From Patescibacteria group bacterium (GTDB lineage: Bacteria; Patescibacteriota; Patescibacteriia; UBA10025; JAHIVO01), in contig JAHIVO010000001.1 in the NCBI GenBank assembly GCA_018816445.1, positions 8,354 through 72,353 on the forward strand: a stretch of 64,000 nt of DNA, read 5' to 3'. Positions 11,862 through 21,619 of the stretch are shown here, piece after piece. Position 1 is the first letter of the stretch; each line of letters starts with the position of its first letter. Below the pieces are notes generated by a model. That model worked only from the letters and a program-made list of their open reading frames with translations. It made no database searches and was not told where the DNA came from. A program made the position numbers and the translations under genes.

Positions 11862-12572
11862 TTAATGTTTATTTATTATCGAAACCATACTACTGTCCCT
11901 GAATGGTACTGGTTCGGTAAAGGTATAATCAGGAAATCTTAACTTAATATCTTCCAAAGACCAAAAGTGTACATAAAAAAGATGTTTTTTACCAACTTTT
12001 TTAATTGGTGCCAAAATAAAAACGCCGTGATCAGCCAAACAATTTTTAACATTATTCAATGCAAAAGACAATTTAGAGTCTTTAACAATGTGTTGGATAA
12101 CGTCAATCATTAAAATTAGATTAAACCTACCGTTTATTTTGTCGGTACTGACATCCTTTTTCGTAAATTCGAAGTTGAGAAATTTTTCTTTTAGATTTGG
12201 AAACAGCGAATCGGTTATATCCAGTCCCGTATAATTTTTTACGCCTAAATCATAAAGCAGCTGGGCGTAGAAGCCATTTCCACAGCCGATATCCAAGACC
12301 GATGCTGATTTGAAGTCTATGTTTTGTTCTTGACATAAATCTACTACAACTTTGGCAGCCTCAGCATACATAATCTTATTATCCTGTTCAGGCAGACCTT
12401 CATCGCCCACTCCCCTAATAGCCATCTTGTATTTTGAGAATCTATCGTGCCAATACCGAGACGCATTGTAATCATCACCACTACCATATTTCATGGGTCC
12501 AATTATTAGTTTATAAATTACATTCTTAATAAAAACCAGGGGATTTCTAATAAATTTTGGTATGGAGTTCAT
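11862..12572 (-). CDS. Class I SAM-dependent methyltransferase
   Basis: 'VLDIGCGNGFYAQ' motif I and 'FNLILMIDVIQHI'. Confidence 0.7.
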   Translation of the reverse strand: MNSIPKFIRNPLVFIKNVIYKLIIGPMKYGSGDDYNASRYWHDRFSKYKMAIRGVGDEGLPEQDNKIMYAEAAKVVVDLCQEQNIDFKSASVLDIGCGNGFYAQLLYDLGVKNYTGLDITDSLFPNLKEKFLNFEFTKKDVSTDKINGRFNLILMIDVIQHIVKDSKLSFALNNVKNCLADHGVFILAPIKKVGKKHLFYVHFWSLEDIKLRFPDYTFTEPVPFRDSSMVSIINKH

Positions 12573-12600
12573 ATTATTTATCTTTAATTAATTTAATATA

Positions 12601-14474: not shown

Positions 14475-15980
14475 TTATACCTTCTCAATTATTGCTTCTG
14501 AAATCGGATGACCATCAAAAATATTAGATTGTTCAATATTCATTAGCTTGAATATTGTAGGCGCAATGTCTATAATATTGTTCTGCTTTAATTCCATATT
14601 TGTTTTAATATCCGGTCCGTAGGAAATGAATATTCCGTCAAGGCTGTGATATTGAAATTTTCCTTTAACAAAAGCAGGACCCATAATACTTTTTATCAGA
14701 TATTTTGAAGAATATAATATTATATCCGGCCCATTTCTCACCTGTCTGCCAGAATATATTTTTTGTGAATCTGCTACAACGTCAAATACACGATCCTTAT
14801 TGTCAGGTCCTTTTATCTTGGTGAGTTTATCAATAATCTCTTGTTTAATTTTTTTATATTCATTATCATTGTCAATAATTCCATTTGAAAATCTGCCTTT
14901 ACGGTTTAGATAGATTAAGTTTGATAAGCTATATACAGATGAATTAAGTGTATCAATGCCAATATCCTGGTCTACATATATTGGTAATATTTTTTTAATT
15001 TTGTCATATATTTTTTTCGCAAACTTGAATATAGTGGGATATTTCCACATAAAGGAAGTCAGACCAGACAGATTTAAATTTAATGCTTTTTTTGCAGATT
15101 TATCTCTGCTTTCTGAAATTTTACCGAAATCAATATGCTTTTTATTTTTTGATTTAAATTGCAGATAATTTTCTTTAGCCAGCCATTCATTCAAAAAGAA
15201 TACTCCTTTCAAATCAGAAAAACCGTGATCAGACATAACTAGTAAGTTAGTATTTGCCGGCAAGTTATCCGCGAACCACCCAAGGTAGCTATCAATATCT
15301 TGGTAAATATTTATTACTGACTGATTCTTTTTAAGATCTTGATTAATTAAATCATGATATTTTGTATGTTGTATCCAGTCTGTACCGCTAAAAAGGACGA
15401 AGAAAAAATCCCATGGTTTATTTTTGAATAGTTTTTGTGCACATTTAAACCTTGTCTGTTCAATGTCACGTATCTCATGAATATGCTCTTTCAGTTTACG
15501 TTCTTTTTTTCCTTCTGGAGCTAATTTATATTTGGTGAACTCAGGGATTTCATCAATTAATTTTTTAGGAAAAACAAAGTCATCTCCGCGCGTGAGCAAA
15601 CTTGTTATAACTATTTCAGATAATTTTGGGGGAAAAGATACAGGTAAATTAACTAAAATACATTTTTTTCCAATTTCATCCAACTGTTCGTAAAAGGTTT
15701 TTACTTTTATTGAATTACTTGAAATAGGTGCATAGTCGTCAAGATCATTCTCTGGCGTCACGAATTCAAAACAACCGTGCTGACCAGGATTTGCACCCGT
15801 TGCAAATGACGTCCAGGCAGGTGCAGTAACTGGGGGTAGGGTAGTTCTAAGGGAGCTGAATGATCCATTTTCCTTAATTTTTTTTATATTGGGCAAGAAA
15901 CCCCCGTCAATTAGTTTATTGATCAATTGCCAATTTACTCCGTCTAGGCCTATGACTATTACTTTTTTACTATTATTCAT
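14475..15980 (-). CDS. Alkaline-phosphatase-superfamily protein (type I phosphodiesterase / nucleotide pyrophosphatase, PF01663-like)
   Basis: 'VIVIGLDGVNW' and 'LPPVTAPAWTSFATGANPGQHG', the metal-ligand and catalytic Thr/Ser region of NPP/AP-family enzymes; 'SDHGF' later. Confidence 0.6.
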   Translation of the reverse strand: MNNSKKVIVIGLDGVNWQLINKLIDGGFLPNIKKIKENGSFSSLRTTLPPVTAPAWTSFATGANPGQHGCFEFVTPENDLDDYAPISSNSIKVKTFYEQLDEIGKKCILVNLPVSFPPKLSEIVITSLLTRGDDFVFPKKLIDEIPEFTKYKLAPEGKKERKLKEHIHEIRDIEQTRFKCAQKLFKNKPWDFFFVLFSGTDWIQHTKYHDLINQDLKKNQSVINIYQDIDSYLGWFADNLPANTNLLVMSDHGFSDLKGVFFLNEWLAKENYLQFKSKNKKHIDFGKISESRDKSAKKALNLNLSGLTSFMWKYPTIFKFAKKIYDKIKKILPIYVDQDIGIDTLNSSVYSLSNLIYLNRKGRFSNGIIDNDNEYKKIKQEIIDKLTKIKGPDNKDRVFDVVADSQKIYSGRQVRNGPDIILYSSKYLIKSIMGPAFVKGKFQYHSLDGIFISYGPDIKTNMELKQNNIIDIAPTIFKLMNIEQSNIFDGHPISEAIIEKV

Positions 15981-15994
15981 GCTGAATATGTGTA

Positions 15995-17458
15995 TTAAAT
16001 GTCAGTTTTTTTATTAATATTTTTACCAGTAAAAAAATTCCTTAGTATTAATATATCATTTTTTGAGAATTCTTTAAACATTACTAAGGTGATCAGATAT
16101 ATCAATACTAGTATTGAATATAATGCTAATATTTTAAAATTAGAAAAATCCAATTCGGTAATCAATACCTTACAAACTATTCCAACTACTAAGGAGGCAA
16201 TAATAATTTTAATAATGGAAATCCAGTTAGTGATTTTATTAATTTTTTTCCAAACGTAAATATATGAAAACAACAAACCAATCACCCCAACGAATGTTGT
16301 TGCCCAGGCAGCACCATTTATGCCATACTTTGGTATTAACAGCAAATTAGCGGCTATACTGGCAAGAATAAGCATGATAGTAAGGTATAATGACATCTTT
16401 TGCTGGCCTATAGAAATAATAATTGTCATCATAACCCTGGTTAAGGCTAACAATGACATGCCAAATACCAGAATACTAAAGGACGTTATGGCAGGGTTAT
16501 ATTTGTCGGAAAATATTAACGGAATTAAATTACCTGCGGTTAAGCTAGCAATAATAGTTAAAGGTCCAAGAATAATCAAACTTAGTCGGATGGCTTGCTT
16601 AATATTTTCCCTAACTTTTTCAATAAGGTTCTTATAATAATAGCCTGAAATAATTGGCAGTAAACTGATAACAAAGCCAGCTAAAATTATATATAAAAAT
16701 CTAGATAAAGTAGTAGCGGAATTGTAATAGCCAGCCGAATCTTGATTATTAGAAAAATACTTTACAAGAAATAAATCTATACTCATCAATAAAGGAAAGC
16801 CAAAAGCATAAAAGGAAATAGTAATAGTTGTATTAAATAACTTTTTTCCGGGAAAATGATCTAGTCCATTTTTAATTTTTGTAAACGACATAGCGGTAAT
16901 TAAAGATACTAGGGCGGCAAGAAAATACGCTAATAATATTGCATCTAAGTCTAAGCCCATTAGTAAAAAGATTACAACTAATACCAGTTTACTTATAGCG
17001 GCAATAATAGCAATTAATGATTGTTTATTAAAACGTTTTAAGCCATTTAAAACGCCAATATATACTGTTCTGATGCCGTAGAGCGGTATTAATAGAGCGG
17101 AAAGTCTAATGTAGTATGCCATTTGAGGATCACCAAACCCCCGGCTGATCAGATCGGCTAAGCCGTAATAAATCAAGGCAATTATCGGAGTTAATATGAT
17201 CTCAATCTTTAAACTTTTTCTTAAAATTGTTTTTGCTGCAGTTTCCTTCTCAGCGATACTGCGGCTAATTCCTTGAAAAAATCCTGAGGTTAGTATAGTA
17301 TTAAGAAGATTTATCAGATATATAACAATTCCAAAAGTTCCATATAAAGCTGGATCAAAAAAACGTCCTATTAATATCTGTATAATATAACCGCTTCCCA
17401 TAAAAATTAGATTTGCAAAAGTAAGGTAAGCGGCGCCTTTAAATAATAAATTATTCAT
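15995..17458 (-). CDS. Wzx-type oligosaccharide flippase (MOP/polysaccharide biosynthesis protein family)
   Basis: 487 aa with about 12-14 TM helices and polysaccharide-biosynthesis-protein family architecture. Confidence 0.65.
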   Translation of the reverse strand: MNNLLFKGAAYLTFANLIFMGSGYIIQILIGRFFDPALYGTFGIVIYLINLLNTILTSGFFQGISRSIAEKETAAKTILRKSLKIEIILTPIIALIYYGLADLISRGFGDPQMAYYIRLSALLIPLYGIRTVYIGVLNGLKRFNKQSLIAIIAAISKLVLVVIFLLMGLDLDAILLAYFLAALVSLITAMSFTKIKNGLDHFPGKKLFNTTITISFYAFGFPLLMSIDLFLVKYFSNNQDSAGYYNSATTLSRFLYIILAGFVISLLPIISGYYYKNLIEKVRENIKQAIRLSLIILGPLTIIASLTAGNLIPLIFSDKYNPAITSFSILVFGMSLLALTRVMMTIIISIGQQKMSLYLTIMLILASIAANLLLIPKYGINGAAWATTFVGVIGLLFSYIYVWKKINKITNWISIIKIIIASLVVGIVCKVLITELDFSNFKILALYSILVLIYLITLVMFKEFSKNDILILRNFFTGKNINKKTDI

Positions 17459-17527
17459 ATTTATTGAAAACTACAATTATTCATAATTAATAAAAAGACA
17501 GAAGTTTTTTATTTAATAATTGGGGAA

Positions 17528-17980
17528 ATGATATATTATCATATGGAGAATAAAAGCAATATGATAAGGTTATTTAAACCAACAACAATTAAGAATATAA
17601 TAGAATATTTCAGAGAGATATCACGACTTATTTTTGTAATATTAATAATAATATATTTATTAAGCCTAATTGTAGATAATTACTGGGAAGGTTTTTTTTC
17701 AAGCACTTTTAGTTTAAATATTATTTTATTGATGACCGTGATAGCTGGGATATTTACCATCATTACAGGGGAGGGCAGGAAGTCTAAATTTAATGTTAAT
17801 ATCCAATCTAATTTTAAAAGAAATTTTTTAAAGATGCCGTTAGTATTATTTATCACCTTACTGGTAATTGTAATGACAGTAAATGTTTTTGAAAATATAG
17901 AATTTTTTGAAATAATTTTAACTATATTAATTGGTATACTATCAGCGCTTATTATATCAATATTATTCATTAATGAATAA
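17528..17980 (+). CDS. Small hypothetical membrane protein (3-4 TM)
   Basis: Hydrophobic ORF with no recognisable motif. Confidence 0.35.
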   Translation: MIYYHMENKSNMIRLFKPTTIKNIIEYFREISRLIFVILIIIYLLSLIVDNYWEGFFSSTFSLNIILLMTVIAGIFTIITGEGRKSKFNVNIQSNFKRNFLKMPLVLFITLLVIVMTVNVFENIEFFEIILTILIGILSALIISILFINE

Positions 17981-18024
17981 TTAACACTCATTAATTGATA
18001 TGATATGATGGTATGATGTTTAAT

Positions 18025-18309
18025 TTAGAGGTATCCCAAGCTTTTTAATCTTTCCTTAACTGATTCGTCATCATCTTTACTAAATTTTTTATCTGTATCT
18101 TGTTTTGGTTGCTTAAGAACTTCTTCTAACACAAAATTAACAAATCCCTCAACAGAAGAAAATTCACTTGAGGATTTTATTTTTTTTTGAATTTGTTGAA
18201 ATATTTTTTCGTCCAGTTTAATTGAATTCATTTTTTTATAATTAATGCTTATTAAATTATTATTTACAATAACCTCAGAAAACCAAATTCCAAATACGTT
18301 CGTGAGCAT
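18025..18309 (-). CDS. Small ribbon-helix-helix (CopG-like) protein with a CysD-like C-terminal tail; paralog of 21202..21420
   Basis: 'NSIKLDEKIFQQIQKKI…SSEFSSVEGFVNFVLEEVL' has RHH strand-helix-turn-helix topology. The C-terminus 'KKFSKDDDESVKERLKSLGYL' resembles the other RHH protein and the CysD C-terminus. Confidence 0.5.
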   Translation of the reverse strand: MLTNVFGIWFSEVIVNNNLISINYKKMNSIKLDEKIFQQIQKKIKSSSEFSSVEGFVNFVLEEVLKQPKQDTDKKFSKDDDESVKERLKSLGYL

Positions 18310-18344
18310 AATTATGCATCTCTTTTAAATTTATATTTATATTA

Positions 18345-19586
18345 TTAATTAAGTGTGATAATGCCACCTGCTACAACTGCGCCATTTCTGATTAAAATAA
18401 ATCTACCTAACTCCGGAATATTATTAAAATCTTCAATTATTACTGGATTATCAGCTTTGAGTTTGACTGTAGCAATTTCCATCTCTTTAAGTTCATTAGA
18501 TTTGTCTTCAATAATCTTAAGTGAAGATGAATTTATGCGATTGGTTATAGATTCTGCGAACACACCAATTTCCTGAGTGGCGCATTGTAGTGTGAGATTC
18601 TCTTTAATGCTTAATGGCTCTTTTGACATCCAAAATAGATTTCCCACTACCTCGTCGGTTGATTTTGGTTTATTATCACTTTGGGTGGCAATATCACCAC
18701 GATCTACAAAAATTGGGTCTATTAATGTTATTCCAATATTTTCTCCGGCTGAAGCCGATTCCAGCTGTTGGTTCATTTTTTCTATTGTTTTAATTGATGA
18801 TTTATTACCTTTTGGTAAGAAGGTTACTTCATCGCCTTTTTTAATTGTGCCAGATGCAATTTGTCCGGCAATAATGCGTATTTCGTCAAATTTATATAAA
18901 TCCTGGATTGGCATTCTAAATGGCTTATTGGAGAGATTTTTTGTTTCCTTGAACGTTTCCAGTGCTTCTAAAACTGTTTTATCTTCGTACCAATCCATAT
19001 TATCTGATTTTTTTGCAATATTATCTCCTTTGAAAGCTGAGATTGGAATAATGAAGGTAGGAGTTATTTTAATTTTTTTAAGAAATTCCAGCAACTCTTT
19101 TTTTACTTTTATGTAATTTTCTTCTTTATATTTTACCTTGTCCATTTTATTAATTACAACGATTACTTGTTCCAGACCCAACAAGCTTAAGAATTTTGCA
19201 TGTCGCTTTGTTTGCTCTTGGATACCTTCATTGGCATCTACGATTAAAATTGCTGCTTCGGCCTGTGAGGCACCTGTTATCATATTTTTTGTAAATTCAA
19301 CATGGCCTGGTGCATCAATGATGACATACTCCCTGGCATCAGTTTTGAAAAATATTTGTGCAGTGTCAATAGTAATATTCTGGTCTCTTTCTTCAATCAT
19401 GTGATCCATAAGATAAGCGTATTCAAACTGCTTGCCTTGTTGTTTGCAGATTGTTTTTACCTCAGATATTTTTTCTTCTGTTATTGATTTTGTATCACAT
19501 AATAGTCGGCCAATAAGTGTTGATTTTCCATGATCAACATGTCCTACAAAAACAATTTTAAATTTTGATTCTTTTTGATTCCTCAT
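18345..19586 (-). CDS. cysN: Sulfate adenylyltransferase subunit 1 (CysN GTPase; no APS-kinase domain)
   Basis: 'VGHVDHGKSTLIGRLL', 'NITIDTA', 'IIDAPGH', 'NMITGASQAEAAILIVDA', 'QTKRHA' and 'NKMDKV' reproduce CysN/NodQ G1-G4 blocks. At 413 aa there is no room for a CysC domain. Confidence 0.85.
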   Translation of the reverse strand: MRNQKESKFKIVFVGHVDHGKSTLIGRLLCDTKSITEEKISEVKTICKQQGKQFEYAYLMDHMIEERDQNITIDTAQIFFKTDAREYVIIDAPGHVEFTKNMITGASQAEAAILIVDANEGIQEQTKRHAKFLSLLGLEQVIVVINKMDKVKYKEENYIKVKKELLEFLKKIKITPTFIIPISAFKGDNIAKKSDNMDWYEDKTVLEALETFKETKNLSNKPFRMPIQDLYKFDEIRIIAGQIASGTIKKGDEVTFLPKGNKSSIKTIEKMNQQLESASAGENIGITLIDPIFVDRGDIATQSDNKPKSTDEVVGNLFWMSKEPLSIKENLTLQCATQEIGVFAESITNRINSSSLKIIEDKSNELKEMEIATVKLKADNPVIIEDFNNIPELGRFILIRNGAVVAGGIITLN

Positions 19587-19623
19587 ATTTTTTTAATTTT
19601 GATATTTAATATTTCAATTAGTA

Positions 19624-20439
19624 TTACATGTATCCTAATTTTCTCAAGCGCTGCATAACATAAGCAGCTTCTTTGTCTTGAGAGCGGCCAGCTCTTTCGG
19701 AGCTTTTTGATTTTTTAATTTCTTCGATAATTTTATCAACAGTATCAGCGTCTGATTTAATTGGCTTTGTATTTGGTTTGCATCCGAGGCTCCGATATCG
19801 TAAGCCATTTTTGGCAAAGTATAGTTTATTAATAGGCAGATTTTCTCTTTTTATATATTTCCAAACATCCACTTCAGTCCAATGGAGCAAAGGATGGATT
19901 CTAACATGCGTCTGATCGTCTGAAATTGACCTGTATTGGTTCCAAAGTTCGGGGGGCTGGTTCTTGTAGTCCCAGTTAAATTTTTGGTCTCTAGGAGAAA
20001 ATACGCGCTCCTTAGCCCTAATACCATGCTCATCCCGTCTAATTCCTAGAATTAGCGCCTTAAAATCATGTTTAGCCATGCATTGCTTTAGTGCATTAGT
20101 TTTAAGTTCATTACAGCACGTAAAGCCATCTCCTTCGCCGCACTTAACGCCCCTGGCCATAGCTTCTTTATTCATAGCAATTATTAGATTTAACTTCCAT
20201 TCTTTGGCATATTTATCTCTGAATTCATACATTTCTTCAAACTTAGCTCCAGTGTCAATGTGAATAACAGGGAAGGGGATGTGGCCAAAAAAAGATTTAC
20301 GGCATAATTGGATTAAAGTAGTTGAGTCTTTTCCAATAGACCAGAGAACAGCTATTTTTTTAAACTGATTATAAGCCTCACGGATGATGTAAACACTTTT
20401 GTTTTCTAGTTCATCTAAATGATTCATATTATTTGACAT
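19624..20439 (-). CDS. cysD: Sulfate adenylyltransferase subunit 2 (CysD, PAPS-reductase-fold ATP pyrophosphatase)
   Basis: 'LWSIGKDSTTL' PP-loop, 'IHIDTGAKFEEMYEFRD', and the C-terminal '…SERAGRSQDKEAAYVMQRLRKLGYM' matching the conserved CysD tail. Confidence 0.85.
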   Translation of the reverse strand: MSNNMNHLDELENKSVYIIREAYNQFKKIAVLWSIGKDSTTLIQLCRKSFFGHIPFPVIHIDTGAKFEEMYEFRDKYAKEWKLNLIIAMNKEAMARGVKCGEGDGFTCCNELKTNALKQCMAKHDFKALILGIRRDEHGIRAKERVFSPRDQKFNWDYKNQPPELWNQYRSISDDQTHVRIHPLLHWTEVDVWKYIKRENLPINKLYFAKNGLRYRSLGCKPNTKPIKSDADTVDKIIEEIKKSKSSERAGRSQDKEAAYVMQRLRKLGYM

Positions 20440-21193
20440 TAAAATAACTAATTAGTCCATTAAATACATCTATAGGTTGGTTAACCTTAAATGGAATATT
20501 TTTTGCGATGGCAATGGCATCTGGGTGATGATCGCCTTTCAATTCATTGCCTGTTGAGGTAATTTTTGGTAAAGTCTGAACTGGAGCTTTGTCATAATCT
20601 GTAAATCCATGATCAGAAAGAATCAATACTTTTTCATCAAGTTCAAAAATTTTATTTACTGCTTTATCAATTTTTATATAATAATCTATTAAGGATTCTC
20701 CTCCCCAGTGTAAATGGGACATCTTATCCAATGCGGTATATACAGCAATAAATAGTTCTGGTTTACTATCTCCTGTAACAGAGACAATTTTATTGGTAAT
20801 TTCTGTGATTTCAGTATTCAGCTCTTCTTGAGTAAGGGGGACACCATAACCAGGAGGATTAAAGTAAATATTATAATTATAAGGTGGTACAATAAAAGGA
20901 ATGTTCAATGCTTTAACCGATATATTATTTCTACTGAGAATATCCCATATAAAATCAACTTTTACGTCATTCCGAGTTTGGACTTCACCGTCTTTAACAA
21001 AATCCAGGTGGTTATGTTCTTCGGGTAGTTTTCCAGAAAACATTGAACACCAAACTGAAGCAGACCATGGTTTTTGTTGCAGGCTGATTGTATAATTATC
21101 ATGCTGTGACAATATTTTTTTAAAGGTGGGCAATTTGTCAATATTGGGTTTGATAATATCCCAAGTAGCACCGTCAAGCCCAATTATAAACAT
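20429..21193 (-). CDS. Short alkaline-phosphatase-superfamily (type I phosphodiesterase/NPP-like) protein
   Basis: 'FIIGLDGATWD', 'SASVWCSMFSGKLPEEH' and 'LSDHGF'. Overlaps the cysD start by 11 nt. Confidence 0.55.
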   Translation of the reverse strand: MFIIGLDGATWDIIKPNIDKLPTFKKILSQHDNYTISLQQKPWSASVWCSMFSGKLPEEHNHLDFVKDGEVQTRNDVKVDFIWDILSRNNISVKALNIPFIVPPYNYNIYFNPPGYGVPLTQEELNTEITEITNKIVSVTGDSKPELFIAVYTALDKMSHLHWGGESLIDYYIKIDKAVNKIFELDEKVLILSDHGFTDYDKAPVQTLPKITSTGNELKGDHHPDAIAIAKNIPFKVNQPIDVFNGLISYFNVK

Positions 21194-21201
21194 AGAACTT
21201 T

Positions 21202-21420
21202 TTATAAATAATCTAAATTTTTTAATCTATCGCGTACTCTTTTTTCATCTTCTTTGGTAAATCCCTTTTTTTCTTCATAGGAAGAAGAAACTAATTGTCT
21301 TAGCACATAAATTACATAACTGGAAACAGAATGAAAACCCGTACCGCTGATTTTTTCTTTTAATTTTTCATTAAGTTGAACTGGAATAGAGATGGTAGTA
21401 TATCTTTTTTCATTTTTCAT
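21202..21420 (-). CDS. Small ribbon-helix-helix (CopG-like) protein with a CysD-like C-terminal tail
   Basis: 'TTISIPVQLNEKLKEKISGTGFHSVSSYVIYVLRQLV' is a canonical RHH. C-terminal 'KGFTKEDEKRVRDRLKNLDYL'. Confidence 0.55.
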   Translation of the reverse strand: MKNEKRYTTISIPVQLNEKLKEKISGTGFHSVSSYVIYVLRQLVSSSYEEKKGFTKEDEKRVRDRLKNLDYL

Positions 21421-21619
21421 AGGTTTTTTAACTAATAATTGAATATGTTTATAATATAATTAATTAATTATATAGTCAAGCATTTTAATTAAATATAATG
21501 ATAATATTTGATTAATTCCTAATATTAGCTAAATATATATTTTACTAAGATATAATCTTGGTTATTGAATCGAAACTAATGTATAATTTATCTATAATTT
21601 TCAATGAAATATTTATTAT

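Follow-up and report, generated by a model that had tools for sequence, protein, structure and literature searches.

A cluster of sulfation genes lies on the minus strand of a 64,000-nt stretch (hereafter the window; ~30% GC) of a contig from a Patescibacteria group bacterium (JAHIVO010000001.1, positions 8,354 to 72,353). The gene order is RHH-72, a 254-aa AP-superfamily gene, CysD, CysN and RHH-94, and a flippase and a 501-aa AP-superfamily gene lie farther along. We describe here RHH-72 and RHH-94, two small proteins with a predicted ribbon-helix-helix (RHH) fold, the operator-like repeats ahead of their genes and the C-terminal sequence (the tail) in which both proteins end. The features of the locus are as follows.

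21202..21420, minus strand: RHH-72, 72 aa, leader gene of the operon, of the subtype with YTTISIP...GTGFxSVSSYVxYVLRQ; C-terminus ...EKKGFTKEDEKRVRDRLKNLDYL and stop codon
21205..21267, minus strand: tail of RHH-72, GFTKEDEKRVRDRLKNLDYL, with Asp in place of the usual Gly of the helix C-cap
18025..18309, minus strand: RHH-94 open reading frame (ORF), 94 aa; C-terminus ...DTDKKFSKDDDESVKERLKSLGYL and stop codon
18025..18231, minus strand: probable real form of RHH-94, 68 aa, starting MNSIKLDE, of a second RHH subtype with SSEFxSVExFVNFVLEE
18028..18090, minus strand: tail of RHH-94, KFSKDDDESVKERLKSLGYL, a full consensus tail
20429..21193, minus strand: short AP-family gene (Phosphodiest), 254 aa, between RHH-72 and cysD; PF01663, E 3.9e-19
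19624..20439, minus strand: CysD, 271 aa, sulfate adenylyltransferase small subunit of a short (about 267-aa) subfamily; ends ...QDKEAAYVMQRLRKLGYM and stop codon
19627..19656, minus strand: C-terminal MQRLRKLGYM of CysD, a tail-like last helix plus cap, from a position-specific scoring matrix (PSSM) and the subfamily alignment
18345..19586, minus strand: CysN, GTPase subunit of ATP sulfurylase, between CysD and RHH-94
15995..17458, minus strand: polysaccharide flippase (Pfam)
14475..15980, minus strand: long AP-superfamily protein (Pfam), without the tail

A first-pass annotation of the window, made from the sequence, had pointed out that RHH-72, RHH-94 and CysD end alike. The three C-termini were found as it gave them, and a six-frame scan confirmed that these are the only real genes of the 64 kb with an end of the form RL[KR]xL[GD]Y[LM]. 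Homology of RHH-94 to its family started at an internal ATG at 18231, and the 26-residue N-terminal extension ahead of it had no counterpart in the homologues.

A profile search of 1.84 billion representative proteins returned 1,693 clusters at E<=1e-3 and 448 at E<=1e-10, the former being a lower bound on the size of the family, counted at 50% identity. The product of the 72-aa ORF was identical to a database protein named 'CopG family transcriptional regulator', and members of the family bear just this label. RHH-72 and RHH-94 belong to a widespread, uncharacterised family of ~70-aa predicted DNA-binding regulators in archaea and bacteria. An AlphaFold2 (AF2) model built from an alignment of 21 relatives, with a mean predicted local distance difference test score (pLDDT) of 79, consisted of an N-terminal extended strand, two helices, a linker and a third helix, the β-strand and the two helices after it falling within about 45 residues as in RHH proteins. 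Mutual information with average product correction over 366 family sequences (Neff 239) gave couplings between helix 1 and helix 2 and between strand and helix, together with contacts inside the tail helix. The RHH fold of both proteins is supported by these predictions. In a profile search of the PDB, the RHH domain of NikR was the nearest solved sequence relative, a weak one (E 0.07), and no solved structure of any member of the family was found.

RHH-72 and RHH-94 had been called clear paralogs; they are indeed of one RHH family, but with ~30% identity they represent two recurrent subtypes rather than close paralogues. In other genomes, subtype-94 and subtype-72 genes lie side by side (L159, L107, L154 and L187) or are fused into single polypeptides (P0021 and P0024), suggesting that the two work jointly, possibly as heterodimers; such natural tandem fusions of the two subtypes are also consistent with the formation of dimers. 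P0021 (185 aa) comprises an RHH_1 module and then two tailed modules, and P0024 (116 aa) a subtype-94 module fused to a subtype-72 module. Two tails stand in tandem in P0037 (107 aa), and in P0032, P0046, P0064 and P0065 (about 205–215 aa) an extra ~135-aa N-terminal domain with weak hits to DUF7557 and RHH_10 precedes the tailed RHH.

Repeats of TAATTA were found upstream of RHH-72 and at other places of the cluster (operator-like sites are given without strand).

21457..21470: operator-like TAATTA repeats, TAATTAATTAATTA; no other exact TAATTA-N(2-5)-TAATTA lies in the window
21451..21479, minus strand: promoter-like TTGACT-17-TATTAT, a consensus match only, with its end 30 nt ahead of the RHH-72 start codon
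21486..21501: another operator-like site, one mismatch, TAATTAAATATAATGA
18239..18254: one-mismatch operator-like site immediately ahead of the internal RHH-94 ATG
17474..17489: one-mismatch operator-like site in a divergent intergenic region, 16 nt upstream of the flippase start

The operator at 21457..21470 fills the spacer of the promoter-like sequence, the position and TTGAC hexamer of which are conserved in orthologous loci. When aligned, the upstream regions of cysD-type loci read TTGAC(A/T) and then TAATTAtat(t/a)TAATTA(a/t)AAT; in GC-rich promoters (L020, L023 and L072) TTAATTAAATATAATTAG was conspicuous, in another register relative to the −35 hexamer. In 82 loci (689 kb), 65 of the 70 exact operator matches lay within 130 nt upstream of an RHH gene, at 50 of 81 eligible loci, which corresponded to a density of 6.2 per kb in these regions (<=130 nt upstream of RHH) vs 0.007 per kb elsewhere, about 840-fold. 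The operator was often present in 2–5 copies with 10-bp phasing, and the motif also preceded the RHH gene in independently found genomes of Thermococcus, Asgard, Micrarchaeota and Thermoplasmata. Repeated operator half-sites at its own promoter are a further RHH trait of the family, and the comparative evidence argues strongly for a putative autoregulatory DNA-binding protein with a site overlapping the promoter.

Operator matches with one mismatch numbered 10 in the 64 kb (4.1 expected), 6 of them within 12.5–21.5 kb. The site at 18239..18254 faintly hints that the short form of RHH-94 may have a regulated promoter of its own. Further TAATTA-N4-TAATTA sites with one mismatch were seen inside the glycan/sulfation cluster (12575–12590, 17667–17682 and 17978–17993), one of which was 3 nt upstream of the start of a 236-aa gene (11862..12572, minus strand). 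These extra sites may represent a small regulon, or AT-rich noise.

Gene order was compared in a sample of 80 metagenomic loci of close relatives, out of at least 564 relatives, with flanks of up to 10 kb. The gene 10–100 nt downstream of RHH on the same strand was a sat-type ATP sulfurylase (PF01747 plus PUA_2) in about 44 of 82 close-homologue loci, cysD (usually with cysN after it) in about 23, a kinase of adenosine 5′-phosphosulfate (APS kinase) in 4, and in a few a TauE/SafE permease with cysD behind it. In the sat-type loci no cysD or cysN was found by tblastn in up to 10 kb of flank, and the tails were unchanged. ABC transporter genes came next after RHH in a Dehalococcoidia locus, with a sulfatase upstream. 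Clustering of the neighbours gave a typical operon of RHH, Sat, DHH, CysC, sulfotransferase and Na+/sulfate symporter; DHH phosphoesterases were counted in 41 loci, APS kinases in 37, Sulfotransfer_1-like proteins in 29 and Na+/sulfate symporters in 17, and the DHH phosphoesterase of these operons is a probable phosphatase of 3′-phosphoadenosine 5′-phosphate (pAp). The order in the cultured Thermococcus peptonophilus was RHH, Sat, DHH, Phosphodiest, CysC, TauE and flippase. In this genome (CP014750.1; L203:10947-11405), a DUF4258/DUF2283 gene pair, likely a toxin-antitoxin pair, was inserted between the Phosphodiest gene and cysC.

No cognate toxin gene lay directly downstream of RHH in the window or the homologous loci; the genes in this place were AP-family plus cysD in the window and sat, cysD, cysC or TauE in the homologous loci. 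The CopG gene PAP_09880 of Palaeococcus pacificus adjoins sat (PAP_09885), and both are up-regulated with elemental sulfur (PMC6981617), a study which drew no connection between the two genes. A literature search found no paper linking a CopG/RHH protein to the regulation of sat or cysC, and none with the tail sequences. Because the synteny and the operator in the promoters are both conserved, RHH-72 and RHH-94 are very probably regulators of sulfate-activation and sulfation genes, in agreement with the regulatory role first proposed for them.

The tail was the ending of 122 of the 150 best representatives (~80%), where it was called as [RK]h.xh[GDNSA][YFW]h followed by 0–3 residues to the end. 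Its family consensus was [FY][ST]xEDExx[VI]KxRL[RK]xLGY[LIM] (...F[ST]kEDEekVKeRL[RK]aLGY[LIM][DE] in the alignment form), with L66 and Y71 invariant and G70 nearly so in family alignments, and close relatives switched between LGYL and LDYL. RHH-94 contained the full 20-residue module, defined as [FY][ST]x[ED][ED]Exx[VIL]xx[RK]L[RK]xLGYh at 0–3 residues from the C-terminus, and RHH-72 contained it with D for G. Related RHH proteins had been expected to keep both the tail and a linkage to cysDN: the tail was kept, but the linkage was to cysD in about 23 loci and to sat in about 44.

A PSSM, for which 67 independent tails served as input, was applied to 1,395 genes of the window and of related loci. 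Genuine tails reached 17–28.6 bits over the last nine residues, against a background of −15.6 ± 11.7 bits, and over all 21 columns genuine tails reached 36–59 bits; the native C-terminal helix of APS kinases (...KLEELGYI) scored 3–11 bits over the last nine. A capped helix, with an N-cap box [FY]-[ST]-x-x-E and a Schellman C-cap L-x-x-L-G-Y-h (C3 Leu, C′ Gly, or Asp in RHH-72, and C″ Tyr), matched the invariant residues of the tail. Since these residues are those of a capped helix, the tail is predicted to be an autonomous, flexibly tethered, self-capping amphipathic helix of about 17 residues, not an element anchored by its carboxylate. The key residues were at no fixed distance from the free C-terminus, as the tail was followed by 0, 1, 2 or 3 residues and also occurred internally (P0021) or in tandem (P0037), and the length of the linker ahead of it was highly variable.

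Several known kinds of C-terminal signal were considered for the tail and rejected: an HbYX, GQYL or CysE-like carboxylate-anchored motif, given the varying distance to the C-terminus and the internal copies; a secretion, sorting or encapsulation signal, since a DNA-binding protein and ATP-dependent enzymes of the cytosol are among the carriers; a generic degron, as the motif is confined to one pathway and conserved over both prokaryotic domains; and a PCNA or clamp-binding motif, the pattern of which does not fit.

The tail was also found on proteins other than the regulators. In 4 metagenomic loci, the APS kinase behind the RHH gene ended in ...LLPPVEYTFEDEEAIKKRLKSLGYL, a full RHH tail placed after the kinase's own last helix. 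A tail-only scan of 185,579 species genomes with a degenerate DNA pattern for [DE][DE]E-x2-h-x2-[KR..]L[KR..]xLGYh gave at least 120 stretches with at least 121 matches: 57 small RHH proteins, 41 AP-superfamily proteins (among the matches listed, 36 Phosphodiest-like and 5 sulfatase-like, of 410–630 aa), 12 APS kinases (CysC), 9 partial or unclassified ones and 2 chance ones. With the 2 chance matches excluded, all 119 among the matches listed ended 0–1 residue before a stop codon. Among the matches listed, the carriers came from archaea (Bathyarchaeia, Thermoproteota, Thermoplasmatota, Thermococcus, Asgard and DPANN) and from bacteria (Chloroflexota, Planctomycetota, Acidobacteriota, Actinomycetota, Myxococcota and Aminicenantes). 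Of the 120 tail-found loci listed, 75 contained a homologue of the long AP protein of the window, 35 a Sat, 33 a CysC and 7 CysDN. A tail-plus-linker profile returned only small RHH proteins and no new carrier family. The tail is a mobile C-terminal module of the pathway, common to the regulator, APS kinases and AP-superfamily enzymes; being a hallmark of the RHH family and a module of APS kinases and AP/sulfatase-like enzymes, it is not the imitation of CysD for which it had been taken.

A fifth kind of carrier was seen on a Woesearchaeota contig (L087:6371-6625, minus strand), where an 84-aa protein (MADKRVRSIAKSISWRVIATLTT...) with predicted membrane segments, encoded between cysD and cysN, ended in the tail (...GVIKKLRDLGYI). 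AP-superfamily/sulfatase proteins from clusters of the candidate phyla radiation (CPR) type ended in a basic helix variant lacking the Tyr (...KIKGKIKQLKASGRI, ...IIKEKIELLKKTGKI and ...RIKARVKKLGKSQS), which may be a diverged tail; the long AP protein of the window (14475..15980) was without this end. The variant was located in five loci.

L072:5701-7329: basic Tyr-less helix variant
L078:6620-8251: basic Tyr-less helix variant
L001:12657-14201: basic Tyr-less helix variant
L002:4888-6288: basic Tyr-less helix variant
L023:5375-6763: basic Tyr-less helix variant

In bacterial sat-type clusters a 459–463-aa AP gene stood consistently right before the tail-bearing cysC (L086:1499-6749, L191:4024-5403 and L179:5888-7279), and up to three AP paralogues occurred per cluster. 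The consistent placement suggests that AP-family proteins are core enzymes of the sulfation pathway.

The window CysD was identified by PF01507 (PAPS_reduct, 152 bits), by 1zun_A (E 4e-67) and by the curated profile NF003587, which it matched with 356.7 bits (cut-off 195), and its partner CysN is encoded next to it. It missed the stricter cut-offs of TIGR02039 (270.7 vs 396.6) and NF009214, consistent with a divergent short subfamily, shorter by about 30 residues. This subfamily (265–270 aa) comprised 120 related clusters with 65–94% identity from CPR, DPANN, Methanofastidiosia and others, and its end ...DKExAYxMQKLRSLGYM was almost invariant. RL[KR]xLGY had been regarded as a conserved CysD tail, and an alignment of orthologues had been proposed as the check. 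The alignment bore this out for the short type, in which 114 of 120 clusters ended in LGYM; canonical CysDs differ, both leucines being missing from the P. syringae protein 1ZUN (...GAGSMEEKKRQGYF; ...SMEEKKRQGYF) and from 303–306-aa CysDs (...AMEDRK[RK]EGYF), so that only the 265–270-aa CPR/DPANN subfamily matched.

Over the last nine residues the window CysD scored 24.3 bits, in the range of true tails, the short type in general 20.6–27 bits and canonical CysD (...EGYF) −1.2 bits. With the background as low as it is, the tail likeness of CysD is more than chance. Over all 21 columns the window CysD gave 17.5 bits (vs 36–59 for genuine tails) and the short type −1 to 28 bits; the N-cap and the acidic half of the module are missing from the window CysD, and the likeness is confined to about the last nine residues, so that the tail which CysD had been said to share with the RHH proteins is shared in its C-terminal part but not in its N-terminal half. 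A C-terminal pattern ...SER.GR...M[EQ]xxxxxGY[FM] was present in the window CysD, the 120 short-type clusters, 303-aa canonical types and 1ZUN; the short CysD tail is homologous to the canonical one, with the two leucines gained in the short subfamily. An AF2 monomer of CysD had a confident core, a terminal helix (259–267) of pLDDT about 50 that was undocked, and a segment (139–175) of pLDDT below 50 despite high conservation (IRRDEHGIRAKER.FSPR...). The low confidence of both would fit elements that need a partner, and 139–175 is probably a lid or CysN-contact segment ordered only in the complex.

From these data we favour, at about even chances, a repressor of sulfation operons, itself autoregulated, whose tethered docking helix is common to the pathway enzymes. 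The RHH proteins would bind TAATTA repeats as dimers, possibly as subtype heterodimers or cooperative arrays, and the bound proteins would repress their own operon. The tail helix would be a protein-protein docking element, the least certain step, gathering regulator and pathway enzymes on one cluster-borne receptor or on each other, and the occupancy or cooperativity of the operator would then be set by the state or amount of the sulfation machinery. A docking peptide that would couple the regulator to pathway proteins is plausible, and a docking helix with a cluster-borne partner is favoured because the tail occurs in one pathway only, on at least four unrelated protein bodies, and has spread through both prokaryotic domains. 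Either a protein of the cluster or the tails themselves could be the partner.

Some observations weigh against this interpretation. Neither window protein had an RHH hit in Pfam, the homologues had only weak hits in NCBIfam (ParD, E 0.026, and NikR, E 0.004, both far under cut-off), and hhalign against the RHH_1 module gave a probability of 1.4%, which was not significant, so that a significant match to a curated profile was lacking. No tail-core pair was among the top 20 covarying pairs of the 366 sequences, a test of low power because the tail is so conserved; this lends weak support to the tail being a module independent of the RHH core. The TAATTA copies of the window's own operator are spaced by 4 and 8 bp instead of the usual 10 bp, and we infer DNA binding and repression from the position of the motif only. 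A non-tailed protein common to all clusters was not seen, and no tail receptor was identified. As capping fully explains the invariant Leu, Gly and Tyr, the similarity to CysD and to the native APS kinase helix could partly be structural convergence.

The partner proposed originally was CysN: the RHH tails would copy the C-terminal tail of CysD, dock on the same CysN surface and make transcription depend on the state of the ATP sulfurylase CysDN. The adjacency of RHH, CysD (...LGYM) and CysN genes in the window and in CPR/DPANN relatives agrees with such docking, as do the nearly invariant last nine residues of short-type CysDs, which score like genuine tails, and the undocked CysD tail of the monomer model, as expected of a partner-binding element. 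About 44 of the 82 close homologues, though, head sat operons with neither cysD nor cysN in the flanks and keep their tails; RHH genes ahead of canonical cysD keep RL[RK]xLGYL, so the RHH and CysD tails do not co-vary; the full 20-residue module stands on APS kinases and AP enzymes in genomes or loci without cysN, and its N-terminal half is missing from CysD. CysN may be a receptor in cysDN-type loci. It cannot be the general docking partner, since the operons headed by over half of the regulators are of the sat type and had no cysN in the fetched flanks, and we consider the CysN-docking proposal improbable. Still less probable is that the tail is a sensor or modification site, with its Tyr sulfated or otherwise modified, or with binding of APS, 3′-phosphoadenosine 5′-phosphosulfate (PAPS) or pAp, giving feedback by activated sulfate. 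Every classified carrier is a PAPS-pathway protein, and the Tyr, behind an acidic cluster, is invariant and never Phe in appended tails, but the Schellman cap explains the invariant Tyr, Gly and Leu, a nucleotide pocket made from a single helix with four unrelated protein bodies is unlikely, the first aromatic position is F or Y, and the window is without an APS kinase or a classical sulfotransferase. We know of no precedent for the sulfation of cytosolic prokaryotic proteins.

The main rival, which we regard as unlikely, is self-association: the tail helix would assemble RHH tetramers or arrays for cooperative binding to phased TAATTA, in the manner of Mnt, AmrZ and omega, and act as an independent oligomerisation tag on the enzymes, and the likeness to CysD would be convergent capping that involves no regulatory coupling. 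Operators of 2–5 phased half-sites and the existence of tandem tails (P0037) speak for it, as does, judging from the sequence, a hydrophobic stripe of V/I, L and L in a heptad a/d pattern with the invariant residues left to capping. It has to contend with the module being on at least four unrelated families, all classified matches belonging to the sulfation pathway (RHH, AP-superfamily and CysC; 9 partial or unclassified ones remain); this restriction across Archaea and Bacteria is hard to reconcile with a generic tag and points to a pathway-specific interaction. Self-associating tails would also hetero-associate automatically. That the resemblance came by chance from Lys/Glu-rich low complexity in an AT-rich genome, the small ORFs not being genes, has next to no probability. 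The genome is about 30% GC and the small proteins have no Pfam hit, but hundreds of homologues carry the tail in GC-rich and AT-rich genomes alike, with synteny and operator conserved, and the PSSM parts tails from background by 30–40 bits; the comparative data refute this explanation.

The repressor with a docking helix can be taken a step further, tentatively: the helix may be a pathway-wide 'address' that physically links the transcription factor to the enzymes it controls, being carried by the RHH repressor, APS kinase, AP-superfamily enzymes and, in part, CysD, so that the sulfation machinery, by its amount or state, would titrate the repressor, and the module would move with the clusters between Archaea, CPR and many bacterial phyla.

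As for the other genes of the window, CysN scored 367.5 bits on TIGR02034 (cut-off 336.1), contained the GTP_EFTU domains and had no fused APS kinase. Homologues of APS kinase, sat, DHH phosphoesterase and Sulfotransfer_1-like proteins were not found by tblastn in the whole 64 kb; either cysC lies elsewhere in the genome, or APS instead of PAPS is the sulfate donor. The flippase and the long AP protein are probable downstream users of the activated sulfate. No RNA elements were found by Rfam in the 12–24 kb part of the window. The stop of the short AP gene overlaps the cysD start by 11 nt in the window, and a short (~250-aa) AP protein is conserved next to the short-type cysD/cysN genes of CPR, DPANN and Bathyarchaeia.

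L001:8251-9018: short AP homologue beside cysD/cysN
L096:7301-8000: short AP homologue beside cysD/cysN
L127:5680-6435: short AP homologue beside cysD/cysN
L139:4379-5074: short AP homologue beside cysD/cysN
L187:1314-2096: short AP homologue beside cysD/cysN

It looks like a truncated form of the 450–600-aa AP proteins of sulfation clusters, and a pAp hydrolase, an APS hydrolase or a sulfo-transfer enzyme are candidate roles.

The locus thus belongs to a widespread regulator family that is uncharacterised but has a well-defined operator, and whose C-terminal helix module recurs on enzymes of the pathway. We found no regulator described for sulfate activation (APS/PAPS) or for glycan or lipid sulfation in archaea, CPR/DPANN and most uncultured bacteria; the known regulators CysB/Cbl, CymR and McbR are of other protein families. 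With its strongly conserved TAATTA operator, the RHH family is a directly testable regulator candidate, present in cultivable Thermococcales, and also a genomic marker for sulfation clusters. One short helix serving a transcription factor as well as the enzymes under its control would be unusual, and it could show how activated-sulfate metabolism is sensed or organised in these cells. The AP-superfamily proteins that recur in the clusters are candidates for uncharacterised sulfation chemistry.

Several known systems resemble parts of this one. The MIM1 motif of ESCRT-III ([DE]xxLxxRLxxL[KR]) is a tethered C-terminal amphipathic helix that docks on the helical bundle of the MIT domain; its pattern is nearly identical to that of the tail ([DE]xx[VI]xxRLxxL), but the two are alike in pattern alone, and the clusters showed no MIT-domain protein. 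The C-terminus of canonical CysD (E. coli and P. syringae) has the skeleton M-[EQ]-x5-G-Y-[FM] like the window CysD, but it lacks both leucines and scores far below the short subfamily. In the cysteine synthase complex, the C-terminal tail of CysE binds CysK, and CdiA-CT, which mimics this tail, is a competitor for its binding site (PMC5562914). Sulfur metabolism here provides an earlier case of a C-terminal docking tail that an unrelated protein has copied; the CysE and CdiA-CT tails, however, are short extended peptides that insert the last residue in the active site and need a free carboxylate, whereas the tail described here would be a capped helix and tolerates 0–3 extra residues and internal copies.

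Omega, Arc, Mnt and AmrZ are RHH repressors acting on repeated half-sites, as proposed here. The present family differs from them in its half-site (TAATTA with 10-bp phasing), its target (a sulfation operon) and its extension, which enzymes share. MetJ and NikR, too, are RHH repressors of a metabolic regulon that bind cooperatively to tandem short repeats; they sense S-adenosylmethionine and Ni via extra structured parts, whereas the only addition here is one tethered helix, and their C-terminal parts have no sequence similarity to this family. The RHH type II antitoxins (ParD, CcdA, RelB, VapB, TacA and CopA) likewise have an N-terminal RHH, a flexible linker and a C-terminal partner-binding helix, and are encoded by the first gene of an operon autoregulated via an operator overlapping the promoter, although the binding here is deduced from sequence. 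In contrast to them, metabolic enzymes instead of a toxin gene lie downstream, and the tail is conserved family-wide, is present on enzymes as well and follows in its distribution sulfation clusters, not mobile toxin-antitoxin loci. By analogy, the overall architecture would be of the RHH antitoxin type, and the function would resemble that of the metabolic repressors MetJ and NikR.

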